From assembly GCA_965227295.1 (NCBI GenBank), contig OZ245742.1, positions 4,864,001 through 4,928,000 of the forward strand: 64,000 nt of DNA, in the 5' to 3' direction. The notes beneath the pieces are model-generated. The model did no database searches. It was not told the origin of the DNA and saw only the letters and a program-made list of their open reading frames with translations. Each line of letters opens with the position of its first letter. Position 1 is the first letter of the stretch. The translations under genes were made by a program, and so were the position numbers. Below, one piece after another: positions 12,301 to 52,685 of the stretch. Origin of the DNA: Leptonemataceae bacterium (GTDB lineage: Bacteria > Spirochaetota > Leptospiria > Leptospirales > Leptonemataceae).

Positions 12301-12384
12301 CTTTCTCAGAGCAGCAGTCGCATCTCGAACTTGCTTCAGCAAGGGCGCGTCGGCAATGGGCGCTTCGCTCTGGTAGTGACTCAT
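6400..12384 (-). CDS. Single-chain multidomain biotin-dependent acyl-CoA carboxylase (BC-BCCP-central region-CT-CT)
   Basis: BC motifs VLVANRGEIA, YPGYGFLSEN, GGGGKGM, QRRNQK, EMNTRLQVE, RIYAEDP; biotinyl motif SAMKME; CT motifs DGAGANIREG, LVTGLGRLDG, NAPGFVPG. Confidence 0.9.
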   Translation of the reverse strand: MSHYQSEAPIADAPLLKQVRDATAALRKLNRRTRERRRHDDGGRDHKLSKVLVANRGEIAKRFFLALHEEGIPSVAVVTEPDIGQSWYEFADETVLIGDANNYTHIPTIAAAAVLSGANAVYPGYGFLSENVDFVDALGVCSREFQRDIMFMGPPASVMRKVGNKLDARALAKQNNVPVFEGSEKIRDLEHAAQEAARIGYPVLIKLDQGGGGKGMQPVFRESELTAAVESAQRIGNDLYDNDDYYLEKLITRPVHIEVQIFNNLAVGIRKCAVQRRNQKIIEESGHSFLEPDRSRLLLEAAENMADISGYSEGGGAGTVEFLYDADTGEFGFLEMNTRLQVEYAVTDQSLGVDLASWQVRYFDGRGCDLPVEVIRERRFQFDRIDHAIECRIYAEDPENGYAPAPGKIVRLDLPTFNGVRCDFGFRQGDRVLPYYDPMIGKVIVRGSDRAQALMRLERALQELYIKGTLTNVAQLLRIVRHDAFREPDYTNRLLGDYPELESGQESDPGDYDRRRIMAVRFGAFTEYVRSIRERAGEIARRHDPEQADQLPIKEEVRQVFLVEYGSSHYRVRFVQRSMSNFFVYINDEYSGRIGLGRIADAEDEYLVRFGNRSLRIRTDDKPSYTVLRIKDSDDKIHYYRMKIRAEGGDGDEDNLDLVRAPFQATFVKFAGSASGGELAVGTEVRKGDPLIVVSAMKMETTIYAGRDGRLTYLLENGDISKLQLGKTSDGRILGRSISEGEVLAIVDPEDEEDFDAVAVTEQPAVGRRRRRATSLVETLYQKDIESIFAEYPQRNLSRCLKIMDSVIRGYIPTSSLPDGFLEILENIIEDRYEYEVRSVLRKQAIQILSFYTRMRRLFSPIVVADISYRAELQLFMAQKRLGDYKPSQNFQDVISPVLDAYNYRKHVRDQEDQRIVLSHAYLYLHLANVNDKARRAITRCLVHMLARSREQGAEIRECLSALMQQEMTELDESLVEYVRPLVHRIPDDVAEMRTLELFAEDDETSGADLYKEALDKLHPLLVFDVEDVMSLVTGFSESLESDETGELIPSEAPAWVQSELESKLKFLKQSSRVRRLYSPLETVYLYVLANGDDRRLVSFAAVDAASEQGAETPFARRIWKAIMDAVQVLFAARFIAKNPPLEIPRENGHRVEILTHVGDSRFDFSGFGGDFDYWELNRELTEHFPFLKITQIEASILHLDVHARASGTYSRRMIGFHGDGETIRFHLLDVDFRNPYSGLPAPEDPRVERMLARDKWPIDFWVRECFDDVDSVQEILVPSIDDQQVVNPETGAKQRLVVGASIFEGQIDGLPAIFFMKDSRVRGGATGNLEGLKYVAAAYIAYRLGRPLYVWNDGAGANIREGVISLNRAAQGFMMNTLLAENVDAETFARYTERNADETLRNMLAEIGRQFQFPEFIAEDRPPLFTVAVGIGSSAGLDVYGSSQATLQVLLDSPESYRVLTGSNVIRSVTGEDLTNYEIGGAKIMGKWTGIADFIARDKIHLIAIVRRIHRLFGAERERDRIERKGGAAESDEVYTRTALRGRSVVNERILQQNVDDGDFWSLKDEYFAAGAVVGGFARLGGRRTLLLGTRSRFGVRSSATAIRARELLKIAARTKSARILIFGRRWFQEMGPPDRFEDRAGLRARMDFLNTLRDTRGVHINILTHPDGLHRVELNASADALVYVRSGNETREQLQAVRQYAAFIASSFAGAFDYAQNLIALLSPLGSRSPVGPAGPANIPVEVNQAYDIVGSVIEAICDNGSFIEMYREMNDPAAGPALVTGLGRLDGRVVAILADQPQIMGGAPDAPGTEKFRVFMELVNRRGLPVVMLSNAPGFVPGTRQERLRIQAIGAESLDVNILGRVPVVSVVLHQNYGGRQIHAFSKFLRPGIAYVALNSSLVAVMGGQAAYDLFEGRKHGELLANGDEDGARENHRKFMEDFNRKSRADHDAQESGLLDIGISDVTELRASVVKGMEQAIHSHQLAFGADDPGS

Positions 12385-12561: not shown

Positions 12562-15500
12562 TCACTTCTTTTCCATCAGGAAAAGTGTTACGTCGTCATC
12601 CTGCCGCGACATGAATTTGAAGCATGCTTCGACAATCCGATCGCGAACCGTTTCGATTCCATGTTCCGCATTAGTTTCGATGACTTCAATGAGGCGCGGC
12701 GTATCGAACTGTTCGTTTGACTCATTCCGGCATTCAATGACGCCGTCGGTGTAGAGAATGATGAAGTCTCCAGGAGCCAGGTGAAACTGCGCCTTACTGA
12801 TCATGCGCTCGTCCACCGTCGGCACGATGCCCATCCAGACGCCGTCAGATTGAATGACTTCCACCTTGCCCGTCGACTTACGCCAGACCAAAATATCCTC
12901 ATGCTTGCCGACGTGTTCAAAATTGCCCTCGGCATCCGCTTTGAGCGCAGTGAACGTCATGTACAGATTCTGCTTGGTGCGGTTCGCCATATTCTCGTGC
13001 AGCGTCTTGTTCAGGGCGGAGAACAGCTGCAGGGTATCCGGCTCCGGCGATGAGTTCAGATACGCACTGAATCCCGTTTGCGCCATAAGCATGAGCAGAC
13101 CGGAGTTCAGACCGTGCCCGGTCACGTCGCCAATGGCAATCCAGCGATGCCCGTCTAACCGATAGTAGTCGTAGTAGTCCCCCCCGACTTGCTCGGCCGG
13201 AGTCATGTGAGCCGCGATGTTGTAATCGTCGTCTTCGAGGGCGTTCGGCAAAATCGACATCTGCACATGCTTCGCCATTTCCATTTCTTTCTGGAGTTTC
13301 TGGCGTTCCGTTTCTTCCGCAACCAAACGAGAGTTTTCGAGGGAGATCGCCGCCTGAGAACCGAGAATTCCGAGAACCTCCAGACGATCCGGCGTGAATG
13401 CGCCGGTCGCCAGGTCGTTCTCCAGATACATAATGCCGACCAATCGTCCCTGTTTCGTGATCACGTGGGAAATCAGCGATTTGGTCTTCTTGGCCGCGAT
13501 GTAATCATCGCGCGTGAACCGGCCTTCGACGGCGGCGTTCTCCAGCACCACGTCCTGCCCTGTCCGCAAGGAATACTGCATGACCGAAGTGGGCACGTTA
13601 GCATCTGAAAGCGGAATGGATTTGAGAATGGAGGGTTGCGCACTGGTATCCGTTGTATCCTCCGCCTCAAGAAACAGAGCTCCGTCCTTTTCAAGAAGCA
13701 GACAGGCTCGCTGAGCCCCGGCGTTCTCGATTACGTTTTTCATTAAGTTTGAGAGAAGATTCTCCAGCTTGATCTCCCCGGAAATTGCCTGAGTGGCCTT
13801 AACGACCGTTGACATATCGAGGCCGCCCCCGCCGCCCGTGGACGTGGCCGTGGCCGCCGTTGTCGTGGCCGAAATCGTGGTGGTATCTCCGGACGAACCG
13901 CCGCGCCCGACCGAGAACCGTGAGAGCCGCAGTTCAGGGTGTTTCTGCTCCAGGTCGCGAACCTTGGCAACGGCGCCCCAACGCGCCCAATGGCGGTGGG
14001 CCTCATGCAGATACATCGATGAAATACGATCTTTGCCCTGTTCAGCGAAACAACGGGCCGCCAGTTCGTTGCCGAGACACAGCATGATCGGGTATCCGGC
14101 CTCTTCCGCCTCCTGGATCGCCGTATCGTAGAGGCGGCCGGCCTTTTCCCACTTACGTTTGTACCGGGCTTCTTCCGCGAGAACGAGGCTGTAATGTACC
14201 TGAAAGTTCTCAGGCATATTCTTCGCGGCATGTCGGAGGAGGAATCGGTTGAGGCGATATGCAACGCCGACGAAGAAACCCGTCGATTTCTTCCGGCTCT
14301 GGGCGAGAACGGACAGCATGAAGTAGAAGCGCTCGGCCTGGTCCAGGAGCAATCCGAGAACTTCAAGTACGATCTTGAAGCTATCCTTTGCGTATTTAAG
14401 GGCTTCTTCATATTGCTCGAAGGTATAGGCTTCGATCATCTTAAAAGTGAAGAAGTATGTTCGTACGGCAAAGTTGCCGGGGGTCCGCATTTCCTTCTCG
14501 AACATCTCCTCCGAGTAATCGTACATATCGGGGACATCGTCCATGTTCATGCCCCGCAATTTGCGAATAAAACCGATCAGGAAATATTGATTTAACGTTA
14601 CCTCGCGGTCTCGGAGGCGGTAGTGGTCATCGTAGAACCGCACGTTCTCTTCGTCGATCTCCGGGAGGGTCTTGTTGTAAAAGAGGATGCTCTGAGTGCG
14701 ACTAAAGGCAACCGCGTAGTTCCGCCAGTGAAGGTTTCCCGTATCCCGAAAACACTGCCGCGCAATCTGCATGTGTTCTACGTGATTCATAACCGGTTTC
14801 GTCCAGTGGCCGGTGAAACCGTTCTCCGTGAAGTGCACGCGTCCCTTTACGTCTACGTCGGGATTCTTTTCGTTGAGATCCATGGCCAGTTGCATGAACT
14901 GTGCGGATGTCTTGTATTCTTTCGTAACACCGGCCTGAACCAGCGCAATCATGGCATACGCGAAGGCCGAGTACATGGAGTTACCGTACCTCAGACACAG
15001 GCGGGCCATGTAGACGCAGATGTACCCCATGGTATCCGGCTGCGCGATGTAGGCCGAAGGAACCATGTCGTATAGAATCTTACAGATGTTCAGGACGCGG
15101 GCGTTTTGAATTTCTTTCAGATTTTTCAGGGACGCCGCTTTTCGGAAACCAAGCCGCAAACGGAACAGCACATATTGAAGACCGACGTTGACTTTGCCGA
15201 TTTTTTTCGGCAGACTTACACCGAGTTTGCGGAGCGCTTCGCGCGCACGATCCACACCGTCCTCGTGGCGGTTGAGCTGAAACAACACGGCCAGGTAGAT
15301 TTGATAGAGGCGAACCCTTTCATCGTCTGTTTCGCATCGATCGAGGGCATAGAGAATATCTCTTTCGCTCTCTTCGAACATGGTGCAACTGAACTCAGCT
15401 GAAGCCCGGTCCGCATAAATGTTCCAGATGAGGTCATGATTCTCGTCCCAGGCCCGATCCGCATCAAGGTAAGTGCTGGCGATGTTAAGGTACTCGACCG

Positions 15501-17817
15501 TCGATTCGAAAGCGGACGACTTAGATGCCTTCGCCGCGGCTCTCCAGTTGTACTCAGCGAGTTGATTGCGTTCCGCCGGGTCCGTAACGTAGTCACGCCC
15601 TTCATTGTATTGATTTACGATGTCAAAGAGGCGGTCCTCGACGTGTTCGGCCGTAACGCTCTTCAGCAAGAGGTTACCGATCCGCAAATGGATTTGCTTG
15701 CGTTCCTGTTCGTCGATCAGCCCGTAGCTCGCCTGCTGGACCCGGTCGTGGGCGAAACGAAAACCCGGGTTCGTACCTTTCTGCAATTCGGCGTCGCCGG
15801 CCACCTCCGCTTTAATATCGCGAAAGGATTCATCCATGGGCAGGATCATCTCTTCCTCGATCGCGGGCCAGAGATCTTCCAGGGTATCATGCATGTTCTT
15901 TTCATGAATGACGGCGAGCGTACGCAAGTCGAACTTGTTGCCGATGCACGCCGCGAATTGCAGCACACCTTGCGCCTCGGGGCTGAGGCGCGTCAGTTTC
16001 TGGGTCATGAGTTCGACAACGTTGTCTTGAATACCGAGTTTGGAGATGTAGGCAACATCCCACGTCCAGCCCTGGTCATAGTCGAATCTCAAGTGACCGT
16101 TTTCGTAGAGGTCCTTTAAGAGTTCCGCGGTGAAGAACGCGTTCCCCTGCGTCTTGGAAAAAATAAGACCCGCCAGTTCCTGGCTTCGAGTCGAATCGGA
16201 CTGAAGCGCGTCGCTGACCAACTGAGTCACGTCTTCCAGCGCCAGGTTGGATACCGCAATTTCGTGGGAGATGACATCGCTATCTTTGCGGAGCGATTCG
16301 ACCATCGACATCAGCGGATGGGAGGCATCCACCTCATTGTCGCGATAGGCGCCGATAAACAGGAAGTGACTGTTATCTTCGTCGGCCACCAGGGCCTTTA
16401 GCAAGGCCAGGGAGGCGTTATCCGCCCACTGGAGGTCGTCGATAAAGAGGACGAGCGGATGCTCCGCCCGAGAGATTGCCCGCAAAAAACCCTGAAAGAC
16501 GCGGATGAATCGGTTCTGAGATTCCTGAGGCCCCAGTTCCGGTACGGCGGGTTGCGAACCGATCACATGCTCCAGCCCGGGAATCAGCTCGACCAGGACC
16601 TGGCCGTTGTCACCGACTGCATCCAGGATCTTTTGTTTCCACTCATCCAGCCGATCCGCGCTCTCCGTCAGCAAAAGCTGGCAAAGGTCTTCGAAGGCCT
16701 GGGAAATTGCATAGTACGGAATACCCTTCTGTAACTGGTCGAATTTACCGGCGATGAAATTGCCGCGCTTTTCCGTAATGGGACGATGGACCTCGTTCAC
16801 CAGAGCGGACTTCCCGACGCCGGAGAATCCTTTGACCAGGACCATCTCGCATCGTCCGGTCGCCGCGCGCTCGAATGCGCTCATCAGAGCGGTGAGCTGA
16901 TTGTCCCGTCCGTAGAGCTTTTCCGGAACCTTGAAGGTGCCCGAAAAATCTTTGGTGCCGAGATCGAAAGTTTCGATCTCCCCATCCTTCAATCGTTCGA
17001 GACACTCGTCCAGGTCATTGCGCAGTCCGATGGCAGACTGATAACGATCCTCGGCATTCTTGGCCATAAGGCGAGTAACAATGTCGGACAGAATTCTTGG
17101 AACCTTGGGGTTCACCTCATGCACGGGCTCAGGTACCCGGGCGATGTGACAGTGCACGAGTTCCATGCTGTCCCGGGTCTCAAACGGAAGGCGTCCGGTC
17201 AGAATTTCGTAAAAGGTCACGCCCAGGGAGTACAGATCACTGCGCGAATCTACAATCCGGTTCATCCGCCCCGTTTGTTCCGGAGAAATATACGCCAGAG
17301 TCCCTTCCAGGGTTTCCGGGTTTCCCAGGTGCTGGTTCTTGAGGTTGATCCGAGTGGAGATACCGAAGTCGATGAACTTAACCGTGTTGGTATCCGGGTT
17401 TACCAGAATATTGGCCGGCTTGATGTCCTTGTGAATGATGCCTGCGCCGTGTATTGTCGCCAGATGCGAAGCGAGAATTCGGGCGATCTTAAGAAACGAA
17501 CGTACCGCCAGGCGCCCGCGCCCGATCAATTCCTTCAAAGACATGCCGCCGAAATCTTCGAGGATGAGGGCAACACCGGAGGACGATTCTTGCAGCATCA
17601 GCGGTCGCACGGCCGCATCTTCTGCGAGGGCCTTGCCGAACTCAAACTCCTGCTGAAGCTTGGCCATCTCTCGTAAGCCTGGATCCCGATTTCGCGGGAC
17701 CTTTACAATAACCTGCTCACCGGAGTCCAGGGTCGCACGATAGACCACCGTTGATTGCCCCTGATGTACGACATCTCCGAGGCTATATTCGAGTTTCTTT
17801 TCCGTCTGTTCGGCCAT
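12562..17817 (-). CDS. Ser/Thr kinase - AAA ATPase - GAF - SpoIIE/PP2C phosphatase fusion
   Basis: Kinase HKDIKPAN, DFG, SPEQ, DLYSLG; Walker A GFSGVGKS; Walker B LFIDDLQWAD; GAF (YLEN); PP2C VGGDYYD, GDVTGHG, YTDGV, DDDVT. Confidence 0.92.
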   Translation of the reverse strand: MAEQTEKKLEYSLGDVVHQGQSTVVYRATLDSGEQVIVKVPRNRDPGLREMAKLQQEFEFGKALAEDAAVRPLMLQESSSGVALILEDFGGMSLKELIGRGRLAVRSFLKIARILASHLATIHGAGIIHKDIKPANILVNPDTNTVKFIDFGISTRINLKNQHLGNPETLEGTLAYISPEQTGRMNRIVDSRSDLYSLGVTFYEILTGRLPFETRDSMELVHCHIARVPEPVHEVNPKVPRILSDIVTRLMAKNAEDRYQSAIGLRNDLDECLERLKDGEIETFDLGTKDFSGTFKVPEKLYGRDNQLTALMSAFERAATGRCEMVLVKGFSGVGKSALVNEVHRPITEKRGNFIAGKFDQLQKGIPYYAISQAFEDLCQLLLTESADRLDEWKQKILDAVGDNGQVLVELIPGLEHVIGSQPAVPELGPQESQNRFIRVFQGFLRAISRAEHPLVLFIDDLQWADNASLALLKALVADEDNSHFLFIGAYRDNEVDASHPLMSMVESLRKDSDVISHEIAVSNLALEDVTQLVSDALQSDSTRSQELAGLIFSKTQGNAFFTAELLKDLYENGHLRFDYDQGWTWDVAYISKLGIQDNVVELMTQKLTRLSPEAQGVLQFAACIGNKFDLRTLAVIHEKNMHDTLEDLWPAIEEEMILPMDESFRDIKAEVAGDAELQKGTNPGFRFAHDRVQQASYGLIDEQERKQIHLRIGNLLLKSVTAEHVEDRLFDIVNQYNEGRDYVTDPAERNQLAEYNWRAAAKASKSSAFESTVEYLNIASTYLDADRAWDENHDLIWNIYADRASAEFSCTMFEESERDILYALDRCETDDERVRLYQIYLAVLFQLNRHEDGVDRAREALRKLGVSLPKKIGKVNVGLQYVLFRLRLGFRKAASLKNLKEIQNARVLNICKILYDMVPSAYIAQPDTMGYICVYMARLCLRYGNSMYSAFAYAMIALVQAGVTKEYKTSAQFMQLAMDLNEKNPDVDVKGRVHFTENGFTGHWTKPVMNHVEHMQIARQCFRDTGNLHWRNYAVAFSRTQSILFYNKTLPEIDEENVRFYDDHYRLRDREVTLNQYFLIGFIRKLRGMNMDDVPDMYDYSEEMFEKEMRTPGNFAVRTYFFTFKMIEAYTFEQYEEALKYAKDSFKIVLEVLGLLLDQAERFYFMLSVLAQSRKKSTGFFVGVAYRLNRFLLRHAAKNMPENFQVHYSLVLAEEARYKRKWEKAGRLYDTAIQEAEEAGYPIMLCLGNELAARCFAEQGKDRISSMYLHEAHRHWARWGAVAKVRDLEQKHPELRLSRFSVGRGGSSGDTTTISATTTAATATSTGGGGGLDMSTVVKATQAISGEIKLENLLSNLMKNVIENAGAQRACLLLEKDGALFLEAEDTTDTSAQPSILKSIPLSDANVPTSVMQYSLRTGQDVVLENAAVEGRFTRDDYIAAKKTKSLISHVITKQGRLVGIMYLENDLATGAFTPDRLEVLGILGSQAAISLENSRLVAEETERQKLQKEMEMAKHVQMSILPNALEDDDYNIAAHMTPAEQVGGDYYDYYRLDGHRWIAIGDVTGHGLNSGLLMLMAQTGFSAYLNSSPEPDTLQLFSALNKTLHENMANRTKQNLYMTFTALKADAEGNFEHVGKHEDILVWRKSTGKVEVIQSDGVWMGIVPTVDERMISKAQFHLAPGDFIILYTDGVIECRNESNEQFDTPRLIEVIETNAEHGIETVRDRIVEACFKFMSRQDDDVTLFLMEKK

Positions 17818-18030: not shown

Positions 18031-18498
18031 TCAATGGTCTTCGAGAAACTCTCCGATACAGGGAAGAATGCCCAGCGCCGTAAAAAACGTCTGGGTATCG
18101 AAATTATGCCAGTCCTCTTCTAAACGACCTTCGTCATCCATGCGCCAGACGCCGGTCCCGGTAAACAATACGCTTCGATTTGCCGGTTCAATCTGGAGAA
18201 ACTTGCCGGTATGCGTCCCGCTAATCCAGTACTGCGCCGCGACTCGGTTTTCACCAACGCAGAGGGATTCATCGATCAACTCAATGGTGAGATCCGGGAA
18301 TGCATCCCGGTAGATTTTCACGAGCTTGCGAATGCCCGCATGGCTCACAATGCCGGCAGCATATGGATCGTGCCGGACATAATTCGGCGAATACAGTTCC
18401 TCCAGCGCGTCCGGATTCTTGCCGCTCCATACATCGGCCAGGATTCTGCGTACTGTATTCACAAGTTCGGTGGATGTGTGACTCTGGGTGGTAATCAT
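18031..18498 (-). CDS. SnoaL-like ester/polyketide cyclase (NTF2 fold)
   Basis: YRDAFPDL, GTHTGKF, W-x-NFD pattern; GGAG RBS before MITTQS at 18498; 28 bp after the thioesterase stop. Confidence 0.8.
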   Translation of the reverse strand: MITTQSHTSTELVNTVRRILADVWSGKNPDALEELYSPNYVRHDPYAAGIVSHAGIRKLVKIYRDAFPDLTIELIDESLCVGENRVAAQYWISGTHTGKFLQIEPANRSVLFTGTGVWRMDDEGRLEEDWHNFDTQTFFTALGILPCIGEFLEDH

Positions 18499-18526
18499 AA
18501 TCAGGTATCTCCTGGGGCCGGCGGCT

Positions 18527-19444
18527 TCAGCCTTTGACTCCGGCCAGTATTCGCATGAGCTGATCACCAAGAATACGCATGAGGTATTCCCGGTGTGTCT
18601 GCATATAGAAGTGGTTGCCGGGGAACATCGTTAAATCGTATTCTTTGGTAGTTTGCTTCTTCCATTCCTCGATCTCTTCGATGATCACCAGCTTGTCCTG
18701 GACCGCACCGAATGTAGAAATCGGGATATCCAGGGGAGCCTCGTCGATGTATTCGTACGCCCGTAGTAGATCCAGGTCGGCATCCATTACCACGCGCGCG
18801 AGGGTCATGAGTCCGAGGTTTTCCAGAACCTCCGGCGGCGTACCCCCGAGTTCTACAAAAAAGTCGTCCACCATCCCTTCCGGAATATTGAAAATCACCG
18901 AGCGACGCTGCGGCCGCGGAATATGGGGCCCGATAAACGACGAGATGAACATGTGCTCCGGTAGCCTGGCGCCCTGCCGACGAAGTTGCCGGGTGAGTTC
19001 GAAACTGGTCAACCCGCCCATGCAGTGACCAAAGAACGCGTAGGGTCTATCCAGAAACGGTGCGACGTTTTGCCCGAGTGCCTGAATCATCGGGAAAAAA
19101 TCCCGGTAGGGAGTTTCGTTCAGGCGATCCTCCCGGCCCGGAAGCTGGATCGCGCAAATCTCGACGTCCGCGGCCAGGGATTCGTGCCACGAGCGGTAGA
19201 GAGACCGTGCACCGCCGGCGTAGTGAAACGTGAAGAGTCGCATCTTCGCATTCGGCTTCTCTTCCGTTATGTGCACCCACGGATTGGCCTGTTGCGGTTT
19301 GGCCGCGGTCGTCGCGGCGGCGCCTCCGGCTGATGGACTCCGAGAAGCCGGTTGCCGGGCTGCCGGTCGTGCTCCATCGCCCTGCTGTGCAGGGCCACCG
19401 GAACGATTCTTAATTTTTGCGATTAGATCTTGTTTCTTACTCAT
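18527..19444 (-). CDS. Type II thioesterase with Cys nucleophile (GHCMG) and N-terminal extension
   Basis: LFTFHYAGG, QLPGRE, GHCMG, GNHFY. Start MSKKQ at 19444 overlaps the PKS-NRPS stop (ATGAGTAA). Confidence 0.88.
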   Translation of the reverse strand: MSKKQDLIAKIKNRSGGPAQQGDGARPAARQPASRSPSAGGAAATTAAKPQQANPWVHITEEKPNAKMRLFTFHYAGGARSLYRSWHESLAADVEICAIQLPGREDRLNETPYRDFFPMIQALGQNVAPFLDRPYAFFGHCMGGLTSFELTRQLRRQGARLPEHMFISSFIGPHIPRPQRRSVIFNIPEGMVDDFFVELGGTPPEVLENLGLMTLARVVMDADLDLLRAYEYIDEAPLDIPISTFGAVQDKLVIIEEIEEWKKQTTKEYDLTMFPGNHFYMQTHREYLMRILGDQLMRILAGVKG

Positions 19445-22400
19445 TTTCCGCCTCGTCTTCCAGTAATTGACTCCGCACGATTTCCTTAAGGTCTTCCTGT
19501 GACATCTCTTCAAGCGCCATTAAGGCTTCATTCAACTCCAGGTCTTTCTCTTTCTGAGCCTTCTTTTGCAAGACAATTTTACCGAGTTCCGAAATAGAGG
19601 GCGCCAGATACACACTGCTGACCGGTAAGTCTATATCCATTTCTTCCGAAAGTCGCGCCGCCACAACGAAGGCAGTCAGAGAATCCCCCCCGAGGTCAAA
19701 AAAGTTGTTATAGATCCCGACCTCGCCGTACTCTCGCTGCAGGACATCGATCCACACAGTCTGAATTACGCCTTCGATGGAGGTTCGCGGACTGACAAAG
19801 CTCTGCTCGGTTTCAAAATACTTTTTGCCGTGCTCAGTCCCCTCGCTTTCCAGCGCTCCTGCACCGGATCCCGGAAAACGCAGCGCAGTCTCGTTGACCG
19901 AACCATCCGGCAATTCTGGAAGGGAGTCAAGGATTACAAAGTTCAATGGAATCAGAAAATACGGTAATCGACTCTGGAGAAAGGTGCGCAGTTGCGTAAT
20001 CGAAAGCTGCTGGTGTTCCTTGAAATGCAGTGTAAACTCCTGTAGCAATTCGAGAGTTGCTTCGTCAGGTTCAAAGTTGAATCCCGTACGATTTGTGTCA
20101 TCGCGCCAGGCAAGCCAGCACTCCAGCTTGAGGGGATCAATGATGCCGGGCAAAGACAGCAAGATCCGCATCCGCATATCTTTCTCCCAGGCGACCGGAG
20201 CATCCAGAATGCTAACCCCCGTCGTCGAAATCTCACCTGCGGTCATCTCAAACCGACGGCCATCTTCCATTTCCACGGTGCACCGCCGACGTATGGGAAT
20301 ACGCGGCATCTGGCTTTCGTGCGCCAGAGTGAACTGTTCCAGCTCCAGAAGATAGGCCAAACTCTTTTTCAGGAGGGAGGCCTCCACAGGCGAAGTCTGG
20401 AAACCCACTCCGGCCAGTCCGTCCTCAATCCAGCGGACTTCACCACCTACGCGAAACTCATCGAAGAAGCCGGGCAACAGAAGGGTAATCCTCAGATGCA
20501 TGCCGACTTTCCAGTCCGCCGGCACGCCCTGTAGACGCAGGCCACCGGGAGAAACATCCTGAGTCACCAGGGTGATTCGCTGACTATCGCCGTACTCCAC
20601 ATGACAGTGGATGGTAGTGATCAATCGATCCACGATGCGATCCGAGACGATGTAAGCAACCAGTCCGTTGCCGGCCAGCTCCTGGTTCTGCGTCACGTAT
20701 GCCTGGGTAATCGCAGGATGTTCTTCGATCGCCAGTTCCAGTTCACGCAGATTTATATCGCGGCCCTCGATTCCGGCCGTACGCTCTCGAGACCCCAGCA
20801 ATTGAATCTCCCCGGAAGCATTGTAGCGGGCCAGCAGACCGGTTCGAAAGAGCCGTGCGTCCTTAGCTTTCGAAAAAGGACTCTTAACGAATCGTTCCCC
20901 GGTCATCTTTTTCTCGTTTCGATAGCCGGAAGCCAGACCGGGACCGCCGACGTAGAGCTCGCCGACAAACTCCAGGGCAGCAGGCTGCATCTGATCGTCG
21001 AGGATGTAGGCTTCCATGTCGTCGATGGGCCGTCCGATCGGAGGATAGTCCGGCCAGTCGAGAGAACGAAAATCCTTGAGGCGATAAGCGGCAAAGAGAC
21101 CGGTCTCAAAGGTACCGAAACGATAGTTTACTTCGCAGTAGCCGAGCTTTTCCAACATCTCGACCAACTGCCTCGTAATCGAAATCCGGCTGCCGACCAG
21201 ATGAACCTCTCGGAGGTACTGCGGAACCAGATCTTGCTCATGCGCGACCCGGGCAATGCCGCGAAGTACACCCTGATCGGCGAAAATCCGTTCAACGAAA
21301 TGGTCCTTCAGAAACTTGACGAATTCCATATCCTGTCTGCTTTTCTGCGGCGCGATAACGACCGTCCCGCCGGTCGCCAGAGTGGCGAAGGCTTCATGAA
21401 ACAGAACGGAAGAGCTGACCGAGTTGTGCAGCAACGTCCTGGCTCCGAGGGAGAGAGGAGAATTCCGAATGGTATACATCAGCGAGTGGACAAAGCTCGC
21501 GTGGTCCACCTCCACCCCGAGCGGTTTCACCTGATCGTGAGCACGGTAAAACAAAAAAGCGGTGGGATTGGCGGGGACCTTTACGGATTTCGCTGTCTTC
21601 GCCGCCTTCTTTTTGGCCGCTTTTTTCTTTGAAGCCTTCTTTTTCCCCCTGGCAGCCTCCGCCACAACGAACTGACCCGTGCGTAGTTCCAAAACCATAC
21701 GCTGATTCGCAAAATCCTCCGGCCCGCGAATGTCTTGCTCGGCGAAGGTGATGAGCTTGAAAGGATCGGCATCGTGCATGAAGACACTCATGCGCGCCAC
21801 GGAGTATTCGGGGTCCAGGGGCAGAACCGTGCCGCCGACTTTGAGAATTCCAAGTACGGCAGCCAGGAAGGCAAAGGAGCGATCACCGGCCACGGCGACG
21901 ACAGCGCCGGCCGGAATACCCTGTTCCGTAAGATGATCCGCAACCTGTCCGGCTCGCTCGTCGAGATCCGCGTAGGTGAACTTCTGTTCCCCATCTACCG
22001 CGGCAATCGCCCCGGGCACCAGGCGGGCCATGTTCGCTACGAGTTCGTGAATCAGTACGCCCTTCGCCTCAAGGTCCGTCAACAGGCCGTGATGGGGAAC
22101 CGCTTCGGGTGCCGCCTCCCGTTGACGAACGGCTTGCAACTCCTCGCTCACCGGCACGGCGTGCAGGTTCAAGCCATCGACCGAGGTCTTCGGTGCCTGC
22201 CCGGCGCTTTTCAGAATTTCGGCATAGGAAGCCGCGAAGTGTTCCATCGTCGTACGTGCATAGAGTTCCGTCTTGTACCGCAGATCGATACGCAGACCAT
22301 CGTCGCCGCGTCGAATCATTACGACGATATCATCGAAGCCCGCAGTTCGATCGAGGTCGAGCACGTCTATATCCAGCCCGTCAGGAAGACTTCGGGATTC

Positions 22401-25400
22401 CTCTTCAAAGACAAAAGCAAACTGCACAAGCGGGGAACGCGAAGGATCACGCAGAGGATTCAATTCTCTGACGACCTGGAGGAACGGCACATTCGCGTGC
22501 GGTTCGATCCGTTGCAGGTCCTCTCGAATATTCTGCTGAAGGACGGAAATGCTCTGGTCGCCCGACACGCCGACTCGCAGGACAAACAGATTCGTGAGCG
22601 GACCAAGGGGTACATCGGGTTGTACGGGAGACATACGCCGATACACGCCGAGGGGTAGGTCCGTAAGACCGGTGACACGATGCAGGAGAGCAGCCGCGGC
22701 ACTGACGATGACTGGAAGCTCGTCTTTCGGCGCGCTTCCGGAGAACGCTTCCACCGGAACATCAAAGCCTACGGTTTCCGTCCGGAAATTGCGCAGCGGT
22801 GGAATACTCCTGGCAGTGGGCAGCCTTACCGCAGGAAGATCGCCCTGTAGATACTCCTTCCAGAATCTCAGGTTGGCGTCGGTCACCGTCCGGGCGGCCG
22901 CATACTCCCGGTACGGTGTCGGATAAGCAGCCGCGCCTGAATCAGTACCGGCCAGTAAATCAAGCAGTTCCTGTCCGAAAGCCCGGATAGCCGTTTCATC
23001 AAGGATGACGGTATGAGCGGCAATCAACAAGATACTTCCGGATGCGAGTGGAAACAGGCGAACGCGCACCAACGGAGAACGACTCACGGTAAAACCTTCC
23101 TGCGCCCGCGCGATCAATGAATCGAGAATTTCTTCTTCGGATAGTTCTTCGGTATCTACGATTTCGAAATCCGGTGCGGCACCGGAATAGATACGTTGAA
23201 CGGCAACACCGACTTTCGAGGCAACGGACGTCCGCAGGAATTCATAGCGTTTTGTTAATGTTTCAAGAGCTGAACTTACCTGGTTACCGCTGAGTTCGGC
23301 ACCGACAATGTAGGCCACGTGCACGTTCGTAATGTTCGCCCCGGGAGCGACCCGGTCCATAAAGTACGCACTCTCCTGCTCCGGAGACAACGGAAACTCC
23401 TCGAAGGTAAAACCACCGGCAGCCTCGGGGATATCCAGATTCTTGAGAATGTAAATGGAAAGCTGAGCAATACTGGAGCCGTCGGTAATGCGTCCGGCCG
23501 ACAGCTCATAGTCAAGGTCCCGACGCACCCGGCTTTGCAGTTCTACTCCCATGAGAGAATCGATGCCGATCTCTTTCAATGACCGTCCCGGTTCCAGGCG
23601 CGAAACGGGATAACGCATGATCTCTGCTACATTCTTCGCGATGTAGCCCTGCAGCATGGCTCCGCGTTGATCCTCCGGTGTTTTCGCCAGAACGGCCAGC
23701 GAGAAAGGCTGCCCGGAATCCAACTCCCGCGCCGAGGATTTCGCCGGTGCGACGCTGATCCGCGAAGCCAGGATATCTCGATACAACGGACTCGCCGCGG
23801 GCTCTTTCATCGTCGCCTGGAAACGATCCCAGTCGATCTTTATGGCGACGGGCACGGCTAACTGGTGGACAATAGATGCTTCGAGAACGGCCAGGCCGCG
23901 GCGCGAAGACAACGCATGGATGCCCCGGGACAGAAGATTCGCAATCATGCGACTTCCGGTGTCAGACTGCGCGGCAAAACCCGTGTCAGCCCAGGGACCC
24001 CAGACAATGCTCGTTGCCGGCAGCCCCAGAGAACGGCGATAGTGAGCCAGGGCATCCAGGAAAGCGTTACTGGCCGCGTAGTTGGCAAGTCCGTCCGCCA
24101 GCCCGGTGACCGCACCGGAGACGGAAGAGAACAGAACAAAAAAATCGAGTTCGGTATCGGCCAGACACTTATGGAGGACCCAGCCACCGTTCACCTTCGG
24201 ACGAAGAACTTTATGCAGTGCGTCTGCATCGAGATCCATCACCGACCGCCCTTCCAGGACTCCCGCCGAATGAATCACGCCGCGCAGCGGAGGATGGTTG
24301 GCATTGTACTCCTTAAGAAAGTCGTTGAAGCTGTCCTCGTCGGCCGTATCCACGGCGGCGGTGACGATTTCGATCTTTTCGCCGCCCAGGGATTCGCCCA
24401 GGCTTTCGAGGTGGCGCAGTGCCTGAATGCGATCTTTGACCGATTCCCGGTGATCGCCGTCCCAATCTTCCCGGGGCGGCAGCGGCGTGCGTCCGAGGAG
24501 GACCAGGTGCCGGGCCCCCTTCTCGATCAACCAGCGGGCAACCAGCAACCCGATCCCGGTCAGTCCGCCGGTCACCAGATAACCGGCGTCCGCGCGAACC
24601 TCCGCCGATGCCGGCTCCAGTCCCGTAATCGCATGCAGGCGTGCCACGTAACGATCGCCGCCGCGCAGAGCCACATAGTCTTCGTCATCATCGCTTTGTA
24701 ATTCGACAAAGAGCAACTCAGCGGCCTTCGCGGGATCGATCCCCGCTTCCAGATCGACGAGACCTCCCCAGATCAAGGAATGCTCCACCGCCACCGCCCG
24801 GGCAAATCCCCACACAGCCGATTCGATCAGGGATGAGGGTACTTCGTCGCCGATCCGCTGCGCGCCCTCGGTCACGAGGAAAACCCGAGGCCGGTGATCC
24901 GTCGGCACGGCATCCTGGGATTGGATGGCGTGAGTCGTACTCATGAGAACAAGATCATGCACGAGAGCGATCGTCTCCGGAGTGATGTCCTCAGGCGCCA
25001 GCGGGTCGAGGCCCCACAGATTGACCATCGTAAACGGCGTGTCCGGCTCTACCTGGATGAGATCGTCCCGGAGGCCGACGAAATCATCACGGCTGGCCGG
25101 GTTCAATTCGTACTGATCGCGATCGAGTTTCTGAAACTCTTCCCCCGGGAATACCAGGACGGCACGACCACCGGCTGCCTCTGCCAGCGTAGCCAGGGCC
25201 TTGCCGACCCCACGGCCGTCACACAGAATCAGCCAGTTCAGAATCGCCGCGCGATGCTCGCCTTCCCGGGCCTTCGACTGCCAGGTTGTTTCGTAGAGCC
25301 AATCTTTGATGCCCGGGCCGCGCTCTTCTTCCGCGCCCCCATCGTCAACAGGCAGTTGCAGATTGCGCCCCTCGGGCAGCAAACGCTCCCAACGAATATC

Positions 25401-28400
25401 GTAACCAGCGCAATGGATTCGCCCGAGGGCGGCGCGGGTCATGCGAAAATCGTCCACCTTGCGGCGCAGGGTCGGCACAGCGAGGCCGTCGAATCCGCCT
25501 TCCTGCAAGGTCTGCTCAATGGGCACGGTCAGTACGTTATGCGGCCCGATTTCGATAAAAAGATCCGACTCCTCCTCTGCCAGGGTCCGAATCGCCGGAG
25601 CAAAAGAAACAGCCTCGCGCATATTGCGCGGCCAGTAAGCGGCTCCAAAGTCGCCGGTAGCCGCAGCTTCGCCCGTCACCGTGGATACGATCGGCAGCAG
25701 GGGCTCGCTGACGGGCAGACCGCGCAGGGCTTCCTGTAACTCTTCTTTGAAAGATTCCATCTGCGGGCTGTGAAAGGCGTAGTTTACCGGGAGCATCATC
25801 TTGAACACTCCTTCGGGCAGACCGTCCACGACCGCCTGAACCGCTTCTTCTTCGCCGGAGAACACGACGGAGTTCGGGCTGTTGTGCGCGCCAACCGCGA
25901 TGCGATCTTCCTTGCCGGCGATCCGCCGTCGGGCTTCCTCCAGAGGAATTCCCGCTGCCGCCATACGGCCGAGCCCCGTAGCCTTTTGCATGACGCGCGA
26001 ACGATGGTAGATGACCCGCACCGCATCAGCCAGAGCCAGGACACCGGCAGCATGAGCGGCAGCAACCTCGCCGACACTGTGGCCGACCAGGGCATGCGGA
26101 CGCACGCCGTAATGCGCCAGGGTTTCTACGAGGCCGACCTGCAGGGCGAAGATGGCCGGCTGCGCTACCTCTGTTTCGCTCAGGCGCGACTCTTCGGCCG
26201 GGCGACGCAGTTCGTCAATGATGGACCAGCCTGTATGTTCGCGCAAGAGGCGGTCGATCTCTTCTACTTTCGCGCGAAAGACCGGCTCTTGTTCCAGCAA
26301 CGCCGTCCCCATGCCCGGCCACTGCGAACCCTGACCGGAGAAAGCGAAGACAACACGATGTTTGCCCGGTCGGACTTCGCCGCGGCTCACATACGGACTG
26401 GATGCTCCTTCCAGGGCTTCGGCAAGGTGCTCGCTGAGTTCATCGCCGGAATTACCAACGATGGTCATGCGAAACTGTTTCGGATCGCGCTTACGGGCGG
26501 CCGTGCAGCAGAGTTCCTCGAACGCGGCGGCATCGTTGCGGCCCTGCAACCACTGGCGATACAGTGCTGCCTGCTTGTTCAGAGCTTTTGCATCCGGGGC
26601 GCTGAGGGCCAGAATACGCGGCACATCGGACTTGCCGGTCTTTGCATTGGGATTGGCCACAGCCTCATCCCAGGTCATAGTGCGACCGGCGTCCTTCTTG
26701 CGTGCCGTAGATTTGCGTTCGACATTCTCGCCGACAACGGCATCACGAAAGTCCACGTCGATCCAGTACCGATCCCTCGTCCAGGCATGCAGGGGGAGAT
26801 CCACGTGTCGGGCAAATCGGGGGAACAGGCCCGCCAGCTTTACAGGAGCGCCGGCTGCATGCAGCGCAGCAAGTGCATCCATCGCAGCCGCGGTGCAATG
26901 GGAACCAGCCAGGGAGAGGCCCACAGCCACGCCTGGCTGTTCCATTTTCGCGGCCTCTTCCGCGAGGACGGACTGATGGCCAGCGTCCGGCGATAGATCA
27001 ATGAAGAGATCGTGGCCGTCTTCGACTGCCTGACGGACCGAGTCGGTGAGTTCCTCGCCAGAAAGCCTCAGCTCGGACGGAGAAATCTTACCCGCGAACG
27101 AAAAGACTCCGTCGTCGTCGCCGTGATCCCGAACGAACTGTAATGCATCGTCCGGAGATGTCCCGCTGAGCGCCAGGGCGGCCCCCGCTCCCGCGGCCCC
27201 CTGCCCCATCATCATCAGAGGTTGCACTCCGGCCTGCCGGAGCACAGCTCCCAATGCTGCCTGGAGTGCAGCCACGGCGTAACGATCCAGATCGGGGTCC
27301 CGATCCGCGGGTGCGTTAGTACAGTAATTTAGAAGAGACTTCGAGTTATTGTTCAACAACTGCTGGAGCGAGATGTCCCATGCTTCGAGGGTTTCTCGCA
27401 GCACCGGCAGGGCCGCGAGGTCTTCCTCCCGGATGCCCGGCATTCCATTCACCGTGCTCGACAGGACGAACGCGGCCTTGCGTTTCCGGCGGGGATTCAC
27501 CTCACCGCTGTGGACGCCTGCTGCTTTGCCGTTCAGGAAGTCGTCGAGCAAATCGGCGAGGCCTTCTTTTGAAGTTCCGGCAATACATACGCGATGTAAA
27601 TGCTGGTCTCGACGCAATGTCGCATTGTAGGCAATCTCGTAGAGATCGTGGTTGGTTTCGCGGAGAAAATCCCGATACCGACCGGCCATAATCCGAAGAG
27701 CCTCGGAGTTGTGCGCGGTTACCGGCAAGAAGACAACATCCTCGCGTCGGATGAAAGCATCGGGCACATCGTCGTCGTGCTCAGGTTCTTCCGGAGCATC
27801 CGAAACGATGATGTGCGCATTGGTACCGCCGAGGCCGAAGGAGCTTACTCCCGCGTAACGCGGCGTGTCGCTTTGCTTCCATTCCCGGGTCTCGGTCGGA
27901 ATGATGTACTTCGATGTATCAAGGGTGATATGCGGATTAAGGTTCTCAAAGTGCAGGTTACGCGGAATCCGATTGTTTCGCAGGGAGAGCACGGTCTTCA
28001 TGAAGCCGGCCACACCCGCCGCGGTTTCCAGGTGGCCGATGTTCGTTTTTACCGCGCCCAGGACGAGGGGCTTCTCGGCCGTACGTCCCTGACCGTAAAC
28101 GGAGGTAATCGCATCCACCTCGATCGGATCGCCGAGTTCGGTTCCTGTTCCATGAGCCTCGACATAACCCACATCTGCCGGAGCAATGCCGGCGAAGCGA
28201 GACGCGCGGGTCAGCACGTCCTTTTGAGCCTGCATGTTGGGTTGGGTCAGGCCCACGCCGCGACCGTTTTGATTTACGGCGGATCCGAGAATCACGCCGA
28301 GCACTCGATCCCGGTCTGCCAGAGCGTCGGACAGACGCTTGAGCACGACGAGTCCGCAGCCTTCACCCCGCACGAATCCGTTCGCGCGGGAATCGAAGGT

Positions 28401-29180
28401 CATGCACCGGCCGTCGGGCGACAGAGCGCGGAGCCGTGAGATTCCCAGAGTCATCATCGGAGTGAGGTGCAGGTTCACTCCGCCGGCTACAGCCATATCG
28501 CATTCGCGAACCCGTAATGCCTGGCAACCGAAATGAATCGTCGCGAGGGATGATGCGCACGAGGAATTCACCCCGACACTCGGTCCCTTTAGATCAAAGG
28601 TAAACGATAGTCTGTTCGCGCCAAAGCCCGGAGCGTCGCCCGTGCTCGTGTAAGGATCAATTAAGTCAATGTTCGCATGCGTGAGCTGACCGTAATCCCT
28701 GGCGTAGACACCGACATAGACACCGGCTCGAACCCCCGCAATGCTCTCTCTCGTGTACCCGGCATTCTGAAAGGCTTCGTAGGCAACCTCGAGCACCAGG
28801 CGTTGCTGCGGATCGAGGTTGGTCGCCTCGCGCGGATTGATGCCGAAGAAACTCGCGTCGAACTGATCGACCTGATCCAGGAATCCGCCCCAGCGCGAGT
28901 AGATACGCCCGGGCGCGTTTTGATCGGGATCGAAGTAATCGTCGAGATCGTACCGGTCCTCCGGCACCTCACGAATGGCATCCACTCCGTCCTCAAGGAG
29001 TTTCCAGTAGTCGTCCGGCGACTCCACGCCGCCGGGCAAACGACACCCCATACCGACCACGGCGATGGGCTCCCGCTCCCGGGACTCCAGGTCTTCGATG
29101 CGCGCACGCATCTTCTGCATGGCGGCCAGGGCCCGCTTTACGGGAGATATCTCTTTTGACGATCCTTTGTTATCACTCAT
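19437..29180 (-). CDS. Hybrid PKS-NRPS: KS-AT(degenerate)-AT-KR-ACP-C(degenerate)-A(degenerate, with 2x PilZ insertion)-PCP
   Basis: KS NSSCASS/EAHGTGT/NIGHLE; AT GHSVG...YAFHS; KR TGGLTGIG...YAASN; ACP GIDSL; C HTVILDE; A FTYADL, GELYVGGPGLASGY, LPYFLIP; PCP FFDLGGDSL. Confidence 0.92.
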   Translation of the reverse strand: MSDNKGSSKEISPVKRALAAMQKMRARIEDLESREREPIAVVGMGCRLPGGVESPDDYWKLLEDGVDAIREVPEDRYDLDDYFDPDQNAPGRIYSRWGGFLDQVDQFDASFFGINPREATNLDPQQRLVLEVAYEAFQNAGYTRESIAGVRAGVYVGVYARDYGQLTHANIDLIDPYTSTGDAPGFGANRLSFTFDLKGPSVGVNSSCASSLATIHFGCQALRVRECDMAVAGGVNLHLTPMMTLGISRLRALSPDGRCMTFDSRANGFVRGEGCGLVVLKRLSDALADRDRVLGVILGSAVNQNGRGVGLTQPNMQAQKDVLTRASRFAGIAPADVGYVEAHGTGTELGDPIEVDAITSVYGQGRTAEKPLVLGAVKTNIGHLETAAGVAGFMKTVLSLRNNRIPRNLHFENLNPHITLDTSKYIIPTETREWKQSDTPRYAGVSSFGLGGTNAHIIVSDAPEEPEHDDDVPDAFIRREDVVFLPVTAHNSEALRIMAGRYRDFLRETNHDLYEIAYNATLRRDQHLHRVCIAGTSKEGLADLLDDFLNGKAAGVHSGEVNPRRKRKAAFVLSSTVNGMPGIREEDLAALPVLRETLEAWDISLQQLLNNNSKSLLNYCTNAPADRDPDLDRYAVAALQAALGAVLRQAGVQPLMMMGQGAAGAGAALALSGTSPDDALQFVRDHGDDDGVFSFAGKISPSELRLSGEELTDSVRQAVEDGHDLFIDLSPDAGHQSVLAEEAAKMEQPGVAVGLSLAGSHCTAAAMDALAALHAAGAPVKLAGLFPRFARHVDLPLHAWTRDRYWIDVDFRDAVVGENVERKSTARKKDAGRTMTWDEAVANPNAKTGKSDVPRILALSAPDAKALNKQAALYRQWLQGRNDAAAFEELCCTAARKRDPKQFRMTIVGNSGDELSEHLAEALEGASSPYVSRGEVRPGKHRVVFAFSGQGSQWPGMGTALLEQEPVFRAKVEEIDRLLREHTGWSIIDELRRPAEESRLSETEVAQPAIFALQVGLVETLAHYGVRPHALVGHSVGEVAAAHAAGVLALADAVRVIYHRSRVMQKATGLGRMAAAGIPLEEARRRIAGKEDRIAVGAHNSPNSVVFSGEEEAVQAVVDGLPEGVFKMMLPVNYAFHSPQMESFKEELQEALRGLPVSEPLLPIVSTVTGEAAATGDFGAAYWPRNMREAVSFAPAIRTLAEEESDLFIEIGPHNVLTVPIEQTLQEGGFDGLAVPTLRRKVDDFRMTRAALGRIHCAGYDIRWERLLPEGRNLQLPVDDGGAEEERGPGIKDWLYETTWQSKAREGEHRAAILNWLILCDGRGVGKALATLAEAAGGRAVLVFPGEEFQKLDRDQYELNPASRDDFVGLRDDLIQVEPDTPFTMVNLWGLDPLAPEDITPETIALVHDLVLMSTTHAIQSQDAVPTDHRPRVFLVTEGAQRIGDEVPSSLIESAVWGFARAVAVEHSLIWGGLVDLEAGIDPAKAAELLFVELQSDDDEDYVALRGGDRYVARLHAITGLEPASAEVRADAGYLVTGGLTGIGLLVARWLIEKGARHLVLLGRTPLPPREDWDGDHRESVKDRIQALRHLESLGESLGGEKIEIVTAAVDTADEDSFNDFLKEYNANHPPLRGVIHSAGVLEGRSVMDLDADALHKVLRPKVNGGWVLHKCLADTELDFFVLFSSVSGAVTGLADGLANYAASNAFLDALAHYRRSLGLPATSIVWGPWADTGFAAQSDTGSRMIANLLSRGIHALSSRRGLAVLEASIVHQLAVPVAIKIDWDRFQATMKEPAASPLYRDILASRISVAPAKSSARELDSGQPFSLAVLAKTPEDQRGAMLQGYIAKNVAEIMRYPVSRLEPGRSLKEIGIDSLMGVELQSRVRRDLDYELSAGRITDGSSIAQLSIYILKNLDIPEAAGGFTFEEFPLSPEQESAYFMDRVAPGANITNVHVAYIVGAELSGNQVSSALETLTKRYEFLRTSVASKVGVAVQRIYSGAAPDFEIVDTEELSEEEILDSLIARAQEGFTVSRSPLVRVRLFPLASGSILLIAAHTVILDETAIRAFGQELLDLLAGTDSGAAAYPTPYREYAAARTVTDANLRFWKEYLQGDLPAVRLPTARSIPPLRNFRTETVGFDVPVEAFSGSAPKDELPVIVSAAAALLHRVTGLTDLPLGVYRRMSPVQPDVPLGPLTNLFVLRVGVSGDQSISVLQQNIREDLQRIEPHANVPFLQVVRELNPLRDPSRSPLVQFAFVFEEESRSLPDGLDIDVLDLDRTAGFDDIVVMIRRGDDGLRIDLRYKTELYARTTMEHFAASYAEILKSAGQAPKTSVDGLNLHAVPVSEELQAVRQREAAPEAVPHHGLLTDLEAKGVLIHELVANMARLVPGAIAAVDGEQKFTYADLDERAGQVADHLTEQGIPAGAVVAVAGDRSFAFLAAVLGILKVGGTVLPLDPEYSVARMSVFMHDADPFKLITFAEQDIRGPEDFANQRMVLELRTGQFVVAEAARGKKKASKKKAAKKKAAKTAKSVKVPANPTAFLFYRAHDQVKPLGVEVDHASFVHSLMYTIRNSPLSLGARTLLHNSVSSSVLFHEAFATLATGGTVVIAPQKSRQDMEFVKFLKDHFVERIFADQGVLRGIARVAHEQDLVPQYLREVHLVGSRISITRQLVEMLEKLGYCEVNYRFGTFETGLFAAYRLKDFRSLDWPDYPPIGRPIDDMEAYILDDQMQPAALEFVGELYVGGPGLASGYRNEKKMTGERFVKSPFSKAKDARLFRTGLLARYNASGEIQLLGSRERTAGIEGRDINLRELELAIEEHPAITQAYVTQNQELAGNGLVAYIVSDRIVDRLITTIHCHVEYGDSQRITLVTQDVSPGGLRLQGVPADWKVGMHLRITLLLPGFFDEFRVGGEVRWIEDGLAGVGFQTSPVEASLLKKSLAYLLELEQFTLAHESQMPRIPIRRRCTVEMEDGRRFEMTAGEISTTGVSILDAPVAWEKDMRMRILLSLPGIIDPLKLECWLAWRDDTNRTGFNFEPDEATLELLQEFTLHFKEHQQLSITQLRTFLQSRLPYFLIPLNFVILDSLPELPDGSVNETALRFPGSGAGALESEGTEHGKKYFETEQSFVSPRTSIEGVIQTVWIDVLQREYGEVGIYNNFFDLGGDSLTAFVVAARLSEEMDIDLPVSSVYLAPSISELGKIVLQKKAQKEKDLELNEALMALEEMSQEDLKEIVRSQLLEDEAENE

Positions 29181-52674: not shown

Positions 52675-52685
52675 ACCGTAGAAAA

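Follow-up and report, generated by a model that had tools for sequence, protein, structure and literature searches.

A tandem PilZ insert in an apparently inactive adenylation domain: candidate cyclic di-GMP control of a polyketide-peptide assembly line in a Leptonemataceae bacterium

Nearly all known control of natural-product assembly lines is, to our knowledge, transcriptional. A hybrid polyketide synthase-nonribosomal peptide synthetase (PKS-NRPS) gene of a Leptonemataceae bacterium raises the question of whether a signal can also act on such a line directly, as its adenylation (A) domain is interrupted by two PilZ domains, and the PilZ fold is the classic receptor of the bacterial signal cyclic di-GMP (c-di-GMP). 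The gene lies in a stretch of 64,000 nucleotides (assembly GCA_965227295.1, contig OZ245742.1, positions 4,864,001 to 4,928,000), which is called the window and in whose coordinates positions are given below. A sequence-only reading of the window had noticed the insert. The sequence features reported here suggest that the assembly of natural products is a direct target of a second messenger, and the best reading of them, to which we give even chances, is that the interrupted A domain is a c-di-GMP-operated scaffold controlling carrier-domain traffic or chain release.

The gene encodes 3247 aa, in which the Pfam domains follow in the order ketosynthase (KS), acyltransferase (AT), ketoreductase (KR), acyl carrier protein (ACP), Condensation (C), AMP-binding, PilZ (two stretches) and PP-binding, the last being a peptidyl carrier protein (PCP). 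The interval 20010-20642, where the sequence-only reading had placed the insert, had to be corrected for strand: its plus-strand reading is riddled with stops and was rejected, while the gene runs on the minus strand, on which the interval corresponds to residues 2847-3057 of the 3247-aa open reading frame (ORF). The gene and its relevant parts are as follows.

19437..29180, minus strand: hybrid PKS-NRPS gene, 3247 aa, KS-AT-KR-ACP-C-A-PCP with an apparently dead A domain and two PilZ units inserted in it (ORF, translation, Pfam)
22164..23399, minus strand: Condensation domain, residues 1928-2339 (PF00668, E 1.2e-44)
20640..22025, minus strand: adenylation-like core and first half of A_sub, residues 2386-2847 (PF00501, LgrA and clade alignments, Foldseek)
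20340..20639, minus strand: PilZ unit 1, residues 2848-2947 (Pfam, motif columns, model, PDB matches)
20019..20339, minus strand: PilZ unit 2, residues 2948-3054, degenerate (Pfam, motifs, model)
19866..20018, minus strand: second half of A_sub, residues 3055-3105 (resumption of the LgrA alignment, clade alignment)
19578..19766, minus strand: PCP, residues 3139-3201, with GGDS and its phosphopantetheine Ser retained (PF00550)

In the C domain, the motif xHxxxD reads AHTVILDE and retains both the catalytic His and the Asp. Three genes make up the polyketide assembly line, and C-A-PCP is its last module, in agreement with the earlier assignment, a separate thioesterase (TE) gene following the hybrid gene.

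The assignment of the insert to PilZ is secure. PF07238 matched the whole protein with an E-value of 1.3e-13 and the insert alone with 61.5 bits (E 1e-16) in two stretches, and when the units were scanned singly, unit 1 scored 37.3 bits and unit 2 29.1 bits. Both exceed the gathering score of 22.5 bits, so the profile check that had been proposed along with the initial observation came out in its favor. PilZ was the only Pfam family found on the insert, which therefore does not rank among the tailoring-enzyme inserts; from NCBIfam, only the PilZ-type paralog domain TIGR02266 was matched, under its cut-off.

To locate the insertion point, the A-to-PCP region was compared with PDB chains by phmmer. 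Query residues 5-467 aligned with residues 1233-1668 of LgrA (6mfz, second A domain), and query residues 675-826 with residues 1667-1800. Because the LgrA alignment stops at 467/1668 and resumes at 675/1667, the 207-aa insert (residues 2848-3054) is one clean single-point insertion. It lies past the strand after A8 and ahead of A9, with the A fold continuous on both sides as in the a8-a9 type of interrupted A domains, and A9 itself is kept (LPYFLIP). The sequence-only reading had put two PilZ domains between LVAYIV (after A8) and A9; the 61.5-bit profile match and the LgrA alignment bear this out, and all strings it quoted, including its A9 string LRTFLQSRLPYFLIP, are present in the protein. 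In detail, unit 1 carries RxxxR as R2848..R2852 (RIVDR) and, 23 residues past it, DxSxxG as D2875, S2877 and G2880 (DVSPGG), both as first reported, together with the strings VRW and GVGF. Unit 2 has neither motif, as the first Arg is gone from SQMPR and Asp/Asn is replaced by Glu in EISTTG. It also contains an out-of-register RIPIR; since an alignment of 111 units makes the R of SQMPR its conserved Arg, the unit was rightly described as degenerate.

Structure prediction agreed with these assignments. The model of the insert, with a predicted local distance difference test score (pLDDT) of 85.8, consists of two six-strand barrels with a long helix after each. Its best Foldseek matches were two-barrel c-di-GMP receptors, PlzA (7mie) with an E-value of 3e-9 followed by MotI, YcgR, VCA0042 and MrkH, so that the predicted fold is consistent with the structural expectation of the sequence-only reading; single PilZ domains (Alg44, CeSA, 4xrn and PA0012) were matched with TMt of 0.71-0.78 and root-mean-square deviations (rmsd) of 2.5-3.2. 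The 867-aa model of the A-PilZ2-PCP region reached a mean pLDDT of 80.7 with an alignment of 25 double-insert rows, and retrieved NRPS A-PCP chains only, 1amu with an rmsd of 2.8 over 484 columns. Only double-insert rows were used in the folding alignments; a mixed single- and double-insert alignment was rejected, as single units split over both query units.

The host A domain is in a different state from what had been supposed. A8, by which the sequence-only reading had located the insert, is itself degenerate, and that reading had missed the loss of catalytic residues from A3, A7 and A10. A3 is YTSGSTGKPKG in LgrA and FYRAHDQVKPLG here, the P-loop TSGSTGxPKG having become RAHDQVKPLG. A7 is YRTGD in LgrA and FRTGL (FRTGLL) here, with the ribose-binding Asp changed to Leu; A8 is GRLDNLVKIRGYRIE in LgrA and GSRERTAGIEGRDIN here, with a degenerate motif GSRERTAGIEGRDINLRELE; and A10 is NGKVD in LgrA and DGSVN (PDGSVNE) here, with Ser in place of the catalytic Lys. 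The A-domain model TIGR01733 gave this domain 216-222 bits against a cut-off of 317.4. The host A domain keeps the adenylation fold but, judged by these residues, would be unable to adenylate, and any control would therefore have to act on the scaffold or on where the carrier is placed and could not work through amino-acid activation.

A Lys/Ala-rich low-complexity stretch (KKKASKKKAAKKKAAK...) was also observed within the A core, immediately ahead of the former A3 (21576-21662, minus strand, residues ~2507-2535). In the 867-residue model, residues 124-135 (protein residues ~2504-2515), which cover the start of this stretch, have a pLDDT of less than 50.

Comparison with relatives separated the fate of the A core from that of the lobe that bears the insert. 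In 6/6 clade rows (L007-L010, P0003 and P0155) A3, A7, A8 and A10 are degenerate and differ from one another, whereas more distant double-insert proteins have canonical A motifs in the same alignment. The PCP Ser is retained in every row covering it. Of 11 distinct clade proteins, 10 have the His of the C-domain xHxxxD, and only L008/P0150 has an Asn there. Identities of the six rows to the window protein were 30-50% for the A core, 40-81% for PilZ unit 1 and 51-76% for the second half of A_sub, unit 1 exceeding the A core in every one of the six. Within unit 1, R16, D39, S41 and G44 are invariant in five relatives at 37-72% identity, and the first Arg of RxxxR (position -4) is present in four of these five close relatives, with Gln in the other. 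Selection thus appears to keep the A_sub-PilZ lobe and not the catalytic core. Because the enzyme part has decayed while the receptor-bearing lobe is seemingly under selection, the insert rather than adenylation would be what this domain is for.

These features can be combined into a mechanism. The A domain would serve as a pseudo-enzyme scaffold, whose working part would be the A_sub-PilZ lobe. The RxxxR of unit 1 follows the A_sub strand LVAYIVS at a distance of two residues, so that c-di-GMP held by this motif would make the joint of A_sub with the barrels stiffer or change its orientation. As the PCP comes directly behind A_sub, ligand binding would shift the reach of the PCP toward the acceptor site of the C domain or toward the trans thioesterase. 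Chain transfer or release would be toggled on or off as the outcome, in either direction.

The sequence-only reading knew of no PilZ-interrupted A domain, and although none was found described in the literature searched (see below), the window protein is not the only one with this architecture. A word-index search with the insert gave 28 matches (proteins of 406-2000 aa), all 28 with PF07238, PF00550 and PF00501 and/or PF13193, and in a search with the A-to-end region (proteins of 1785-5683 aa) 5 of the 120 listed proteins, query included, carry PF07238. The matches of the latter search include a 3265-aa protein with 59% identity and the same architecture as in the window. An exhaustive phmmer search of 1.84 billion cluster representatives returned 84 at E <= 0.001, of which 37 were at <= 1e-10 and 10 at <= 1e-30. 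With our own hidden Markov model, 128 PilZ units, one to three each, were found in 83 of the 84 representatives, and the family thus comprises at least 83 clusters at 50% identity.

The insertion site recurs in this family. The first unit begins 56-59 residues past A8 in 35 of the 84 representatives. By strict motif regexes, a unit is preceded by A8 and followed by A9/A10 in 40, only the downstream motif is present in 22 and only the upstream motif in one, and one has no unit; the 20 with neither flank are fragments, free-standing forms and members of the dead-A group defined below. A3, A7, A8 and A10 all surround a unit in 26 representatives. With a gap of more than 60 aa between units taken to separate two inserts, 49 inserts held one unit, 35 two and three held three. 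Named members come from Microcoleus, Oscillatoria princeps, an Oculatellaceae cyanobacterium and an Acidobacteriota metagenome-assembled genome. Closer to the window, a search of 41 genomes gave five with the insert, the window genome among them; the rest are the two remaining genomes of its genus and members of two further genera of its family (4/24 other genomes of the family), and the insert was found in none of 16 sister-family genomes.

Two further forms were observed in the family. P0170, P0173, P0193 and P0208 are free-standing proteins of 322-331 aa that comprise an A_sub lobe with a tandem PilZ only and are devoid of the A core, the PCP and the A10 Lys. They are not fragments, since the P0170 cluster has five members (327-329 aa) and P0193 lies on a 69.5-kb contig. 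P0021, P0011, P0020 and P0028 are of the cyanobacterial C-A-PCP type and have two successive A_sub lobes with one PilZ unit each, parted by a degenerate carrier-like stretch; in these four, the whole A_sub(PilZ) lobe is duplicated.

The position of the c-di-GMP signature differs within the family. The second Arg of RxxxR stands in 111/111 aligned units and the first in 34, with Leu in 44; the Ser of the second motif is found in 122/128 units, the Gly in 123/128 and [DN]xSxxG in 105/128. The dead-A group was defined as the 12 double-insert representatives lacking A3, A7 and A8 by regex, that is, by the state of the A domain and not by the PilZ motifs. In this group the full signature, RxxxR with [DN]xSxxG, is present in 8/12 first units and 0/10 second units, vs. 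2/16 first units and 14/19 second units in the other double-insert representatives. Likewise, Arg is found at position -4 of unit 1 in 9/12 dead-A representatives vs. 2/16 others. The intact relatives are YcgR/PlzA-like, with RRxxxR in the inter-barrel linker and [D/N]xSxxG in barrel 2; the window protein does not conform to this type, its linker reading HESQMPR and its barrel 2 EISTTG. In the window clade, the signature is located at the A_sub/barrel-1 junction. In a tree of the units, the first units of the clade group together with a support of 0.94 and the second units with 0.90.

Several points weigh against a c-di-GMP-operated scaffold. The full signature is found in only 31/111 units family-wide, the inter-barrel RRxxxR, which is the canonical site of the intact relatives, is absent from the window protein, and the first Arg is Gln in the clade representatives P0150 and P0151; in the clade, binding may have been lost rather than moved. 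The dead-A representatives probably form a single clade, so that their motif swap counts as one evolutionary event and not many, and the unit tree lacks resolution at depth. Further, a trans-loading A domain was sought with TIGR01733 over the whole genome (5.94 Mb, one contig), and none of the 23 matches exceeded the cut-off, the interrupted domain being the best; the matches outside the hybrid gene are in open frames of 514-693 aa, which were read as acyl-CoA-ligase-type proteins by their size alone. Because the A domain appears dead and no NRPS-type A domain occurs elsewhere in the genome, the PCP has no evident source of cargo and the module could be decaying. As for the signal, 15 GGDEF, 7 EAL and 12 PilZ matches genome-wide indicate that this bacterium would both make and break c-di-GMP. 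However, the window itself contains no GGDEF or EAL match, and an Rfam scan of it gave 0 matches, hence no c-di-GMP riboswitch.

Three other explanations were weighed on this evidence. According to the first, a possible one that we rate below the scaffold reading, the insert is a relic or structural spacer: the tandem PilZ would stem from an active c-di-GMP-regulated NRPS ancestor whose A domain and ligand site have both decayed, and the barrels would persist as a folded spacer, or as a surface for dimerisation or for docking that keeps C, PCP and TE in position, and would not respond to ligand. Such decay would fit the apparently dead A domain, the absence of both motifs from unit 2, the disappearance of the inter-barrel RRxxxR of the intact relatives and the QxxxR in unit 1 of two clade representatives, and some PilZ domains are known to lack c-di-GMP binding; a PilZ survey preprint describes xPilZ domains devoid of the motifs (10.1101/814665). 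However, it explains poorly why, in unit 1, exactly the residues in contact with the ligand (R16, D39, S41 and G44) do not vary across the relatives while the catalytic A motifs drift freely, and why PilZ unit 1 is better conserved than the A core in 6/6 rows. The Arg at -4, in 9/12 first units of the dead-A group vs. 2/16 of the others, also looks like a gain and not a decay.

The second explanation, which we consider rather improbable, keeps the ligand and relocates the output: unit 1 would bind c-di-GMP, and the result would be the recruitment of a partner or the localisation of the synthase, with no internal gate. The trans thioesterase, the SnoaL-like cyclase and the neighboring small PilZ protein (listed below) are candidate partners. 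MapZ binds CheR1 and YcgR binds the flagellar motor, and these partner-binding PilZ receptors, MapZ-CheR1 (5xly), YcgR and MotI, are among the fold matches of the insert; the TE and the cyclase are encoded by separate genes and must dock on the module; and the free-standing A_sub(PilZ2) proteins of 327-331 aa indicate that the lobe can act as an independent unit. Nevertheless, an effect in cis accounts more simply for the constant position of the insert in the PCP-carrying lobe. The third explanation, an active A domain with c-di-GMP-gated amino-acid activation or thiolation, as the sequence-only reading had implied, is plausible for intact relatives (26/84 representatives with A3, A7, A8 and A10 around a unit) but very unlikely for the window, where the P-loop has gone together with the A7 Asp and the A10 Lys, likewise in all clade rows.

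Extending the scaffold reading to the whole family, we put forward only tentatively that PilZ-interrupted A domains form a widespread, undescribed class in which c-di-GMP would clamp A_sub and thereby switch assembly lines, and that the dead-A clade would be a dedicated polyketide-release gate, its ligand site having moved from the linker to the A_sub/barrel-1 junction.

The locus was then compared with known systems. By its site it resembles the a8-a9 interrupted A domains, as in TioS A-M-A (5wmm, among both the sequence and the fold matches), where a foreign domain likewise stands at one point of A_sub. However, known a8-a9 inserts are tailoring enzymes, whereas the insert described here has a signalling-receptor fold, is non-catalytic and comes in one to three copies, and its host A domain in the window appears dead. 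In the accessible part of the categorisation of interrupted A domains by Lundy et al. 2020 (PMC8341866), families 1, 2 and 5 are of the a8-a9 type, only methyltransferase inserts are categorised, and PilZ and c-di-GMP have 0 occurrences. Among the titles and abstracts searched, no description was found of a PilZ-interrupted A domain or of PilZ with an NRPS or PKS, subscription journals and supplements lying outside the search. In the accessible part of PMC11237744, PilZ is named in the reference list only, and the terms adenylation, nonribosomal, AMP-binding, polyketide and synthetase have 0 occurrences in that of the PilZ survey preprint (10.1101/814665). By this search, the PilZ tandem is a new kind of insert among interrupted A domains, and the window holds a decayed-enzyme, retained-sensor member.

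By its fold, the insert shares tandem barrels with PlzA (7mie), MotI/DgrA (5vx6), YcgR (5y6f), VCA0042/PlzD and MrkH, its best structural matches. Receptors of the PlzA/MotI/YcgR type are free-standing and act on motors, DNA or RNA, whereas here the tandem is nested in an enzyme lobe. For xPilZ-PilZ proteins, the accessible part of the survey preprint (10.1101/814665) places binding at the inter-barrel linker, as in the intact relatives; in the window insert both barrels keep the C-terminal helix, but the linker site is lost and the signature stands at the start of barrel 1. A PilZ domain in cis with a polymer-making machine is also found in the BcsA cellulose synthase and in Alg44 (single-domain fold matches 4rt0, 4i86, 4p00 and 9fp0). 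In BcsA and Alg44, c-di-GMP allosterically switches synthesis; these are terminal fusions to membrane polysaccharide machinery, whereas the PilZ tandem of the window lies inside the chain of a soluble thiotemplate megasynthase. Similar to NRPS modules with a non-functional A domain, the window module has an A-like fold lacking the catalytic motifs beside an intact carrier. Such modules are loaded in trans, whereas in the window genome no A domain that could do so scores above the TIGR01733 cut-off, and we know of no dead-A NRPS module with a receptor insert.

If c-di-GMP does operate the scaffold, the module would switch a megasynthase directly and post-translationally, through a receptor built into the carrier-moving lobe, and would represent a new class of c-di-GMP output. 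It would also offer a handle for activating silent clusters and a natural design for the engineering of ligand-gated NRPS/PKS modules, and the family, with its 83 or more clusters, provides both intact and dead test cases.

In the window, the hybrid gene is part of a minus-strand cluster in the order two PKS genes, hybrid gene, thioesterase, SnoaL-like cyclase, kinase-phosphatase and fused carboxylase, beyond which follow a biotin ligase on the other strand, a small PilZ ORF, an FAD mono-oxygenase, a type II thioesterase and a PAS histidine kinase (DH, dehydratase; ER, enoylreductase; BCCP, biotin carboxyl carrier protein).

34884..42749, minus strand: PKS module KS-AT-AT-DH-ER-KR-ACP (Pfam)
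29191..34887, minus strand: PKS module KS-AT-DH-KR-ACP (Pfam)
18527..19444, minus strand: separate thioesterase (PF00975, E 2.1e-37; position shared by 3/3 related loci)
18031..18570, minus strand: SnoaL-like polyketide cyclase ORF between thioesterase and kinase (PF07366, E 4.8e-22; also in L007)
12562..17817, minus strand: Ser/Thr kinase-AAA_16-GAF-PP2C (SpoIIE) regulator, 1751 aa (Pfam)
6400-12384, minus strand: single-chain carboxylase, 1994 aa, with biotin carboxylase, BCCP and carboxyltransferase (Pfam)
5599-6393, plus strand: biotin-protein ligase, adjoining the carboxylase
5146-5751, minus strand: small PilZ ORF in the cluster flank (PF07238, 30.5 bits; DISETG, no clean RxxxR)

The likely start of the thioesterase gene is the ATG at 19444, so that the two genes overlap where the hybrid gene ends. 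The true start of the SnoaL-like ORF is probably further in, and its presence hints at a cyclised polyketide product. The order hybrid gene, TE, kinase/phosphatase is conserved in 3/3 related loci, in which the kinase/phosphatase protein, of ~1750 aa, is encoded at L007 12948-18206, L008 12367-17580 and L010 12098-17347, and the carboxylase, which we presume supplies extender units, follows the kinase in two of these three. The small PilZ ORF, one of the 12 genomic PilZ matches, may start at an internal Met and would then encode a single-domain protein of ~120 aa. Elsewhere in the window, three ORFs of 302-560 aa (52686-54368, 56616-57638 and 51781-52689, minus strand) that gave no Pfam match at E <= 1e-5 adjoin a radical SAM gene and an ABC/phosphate-type transporter operon.

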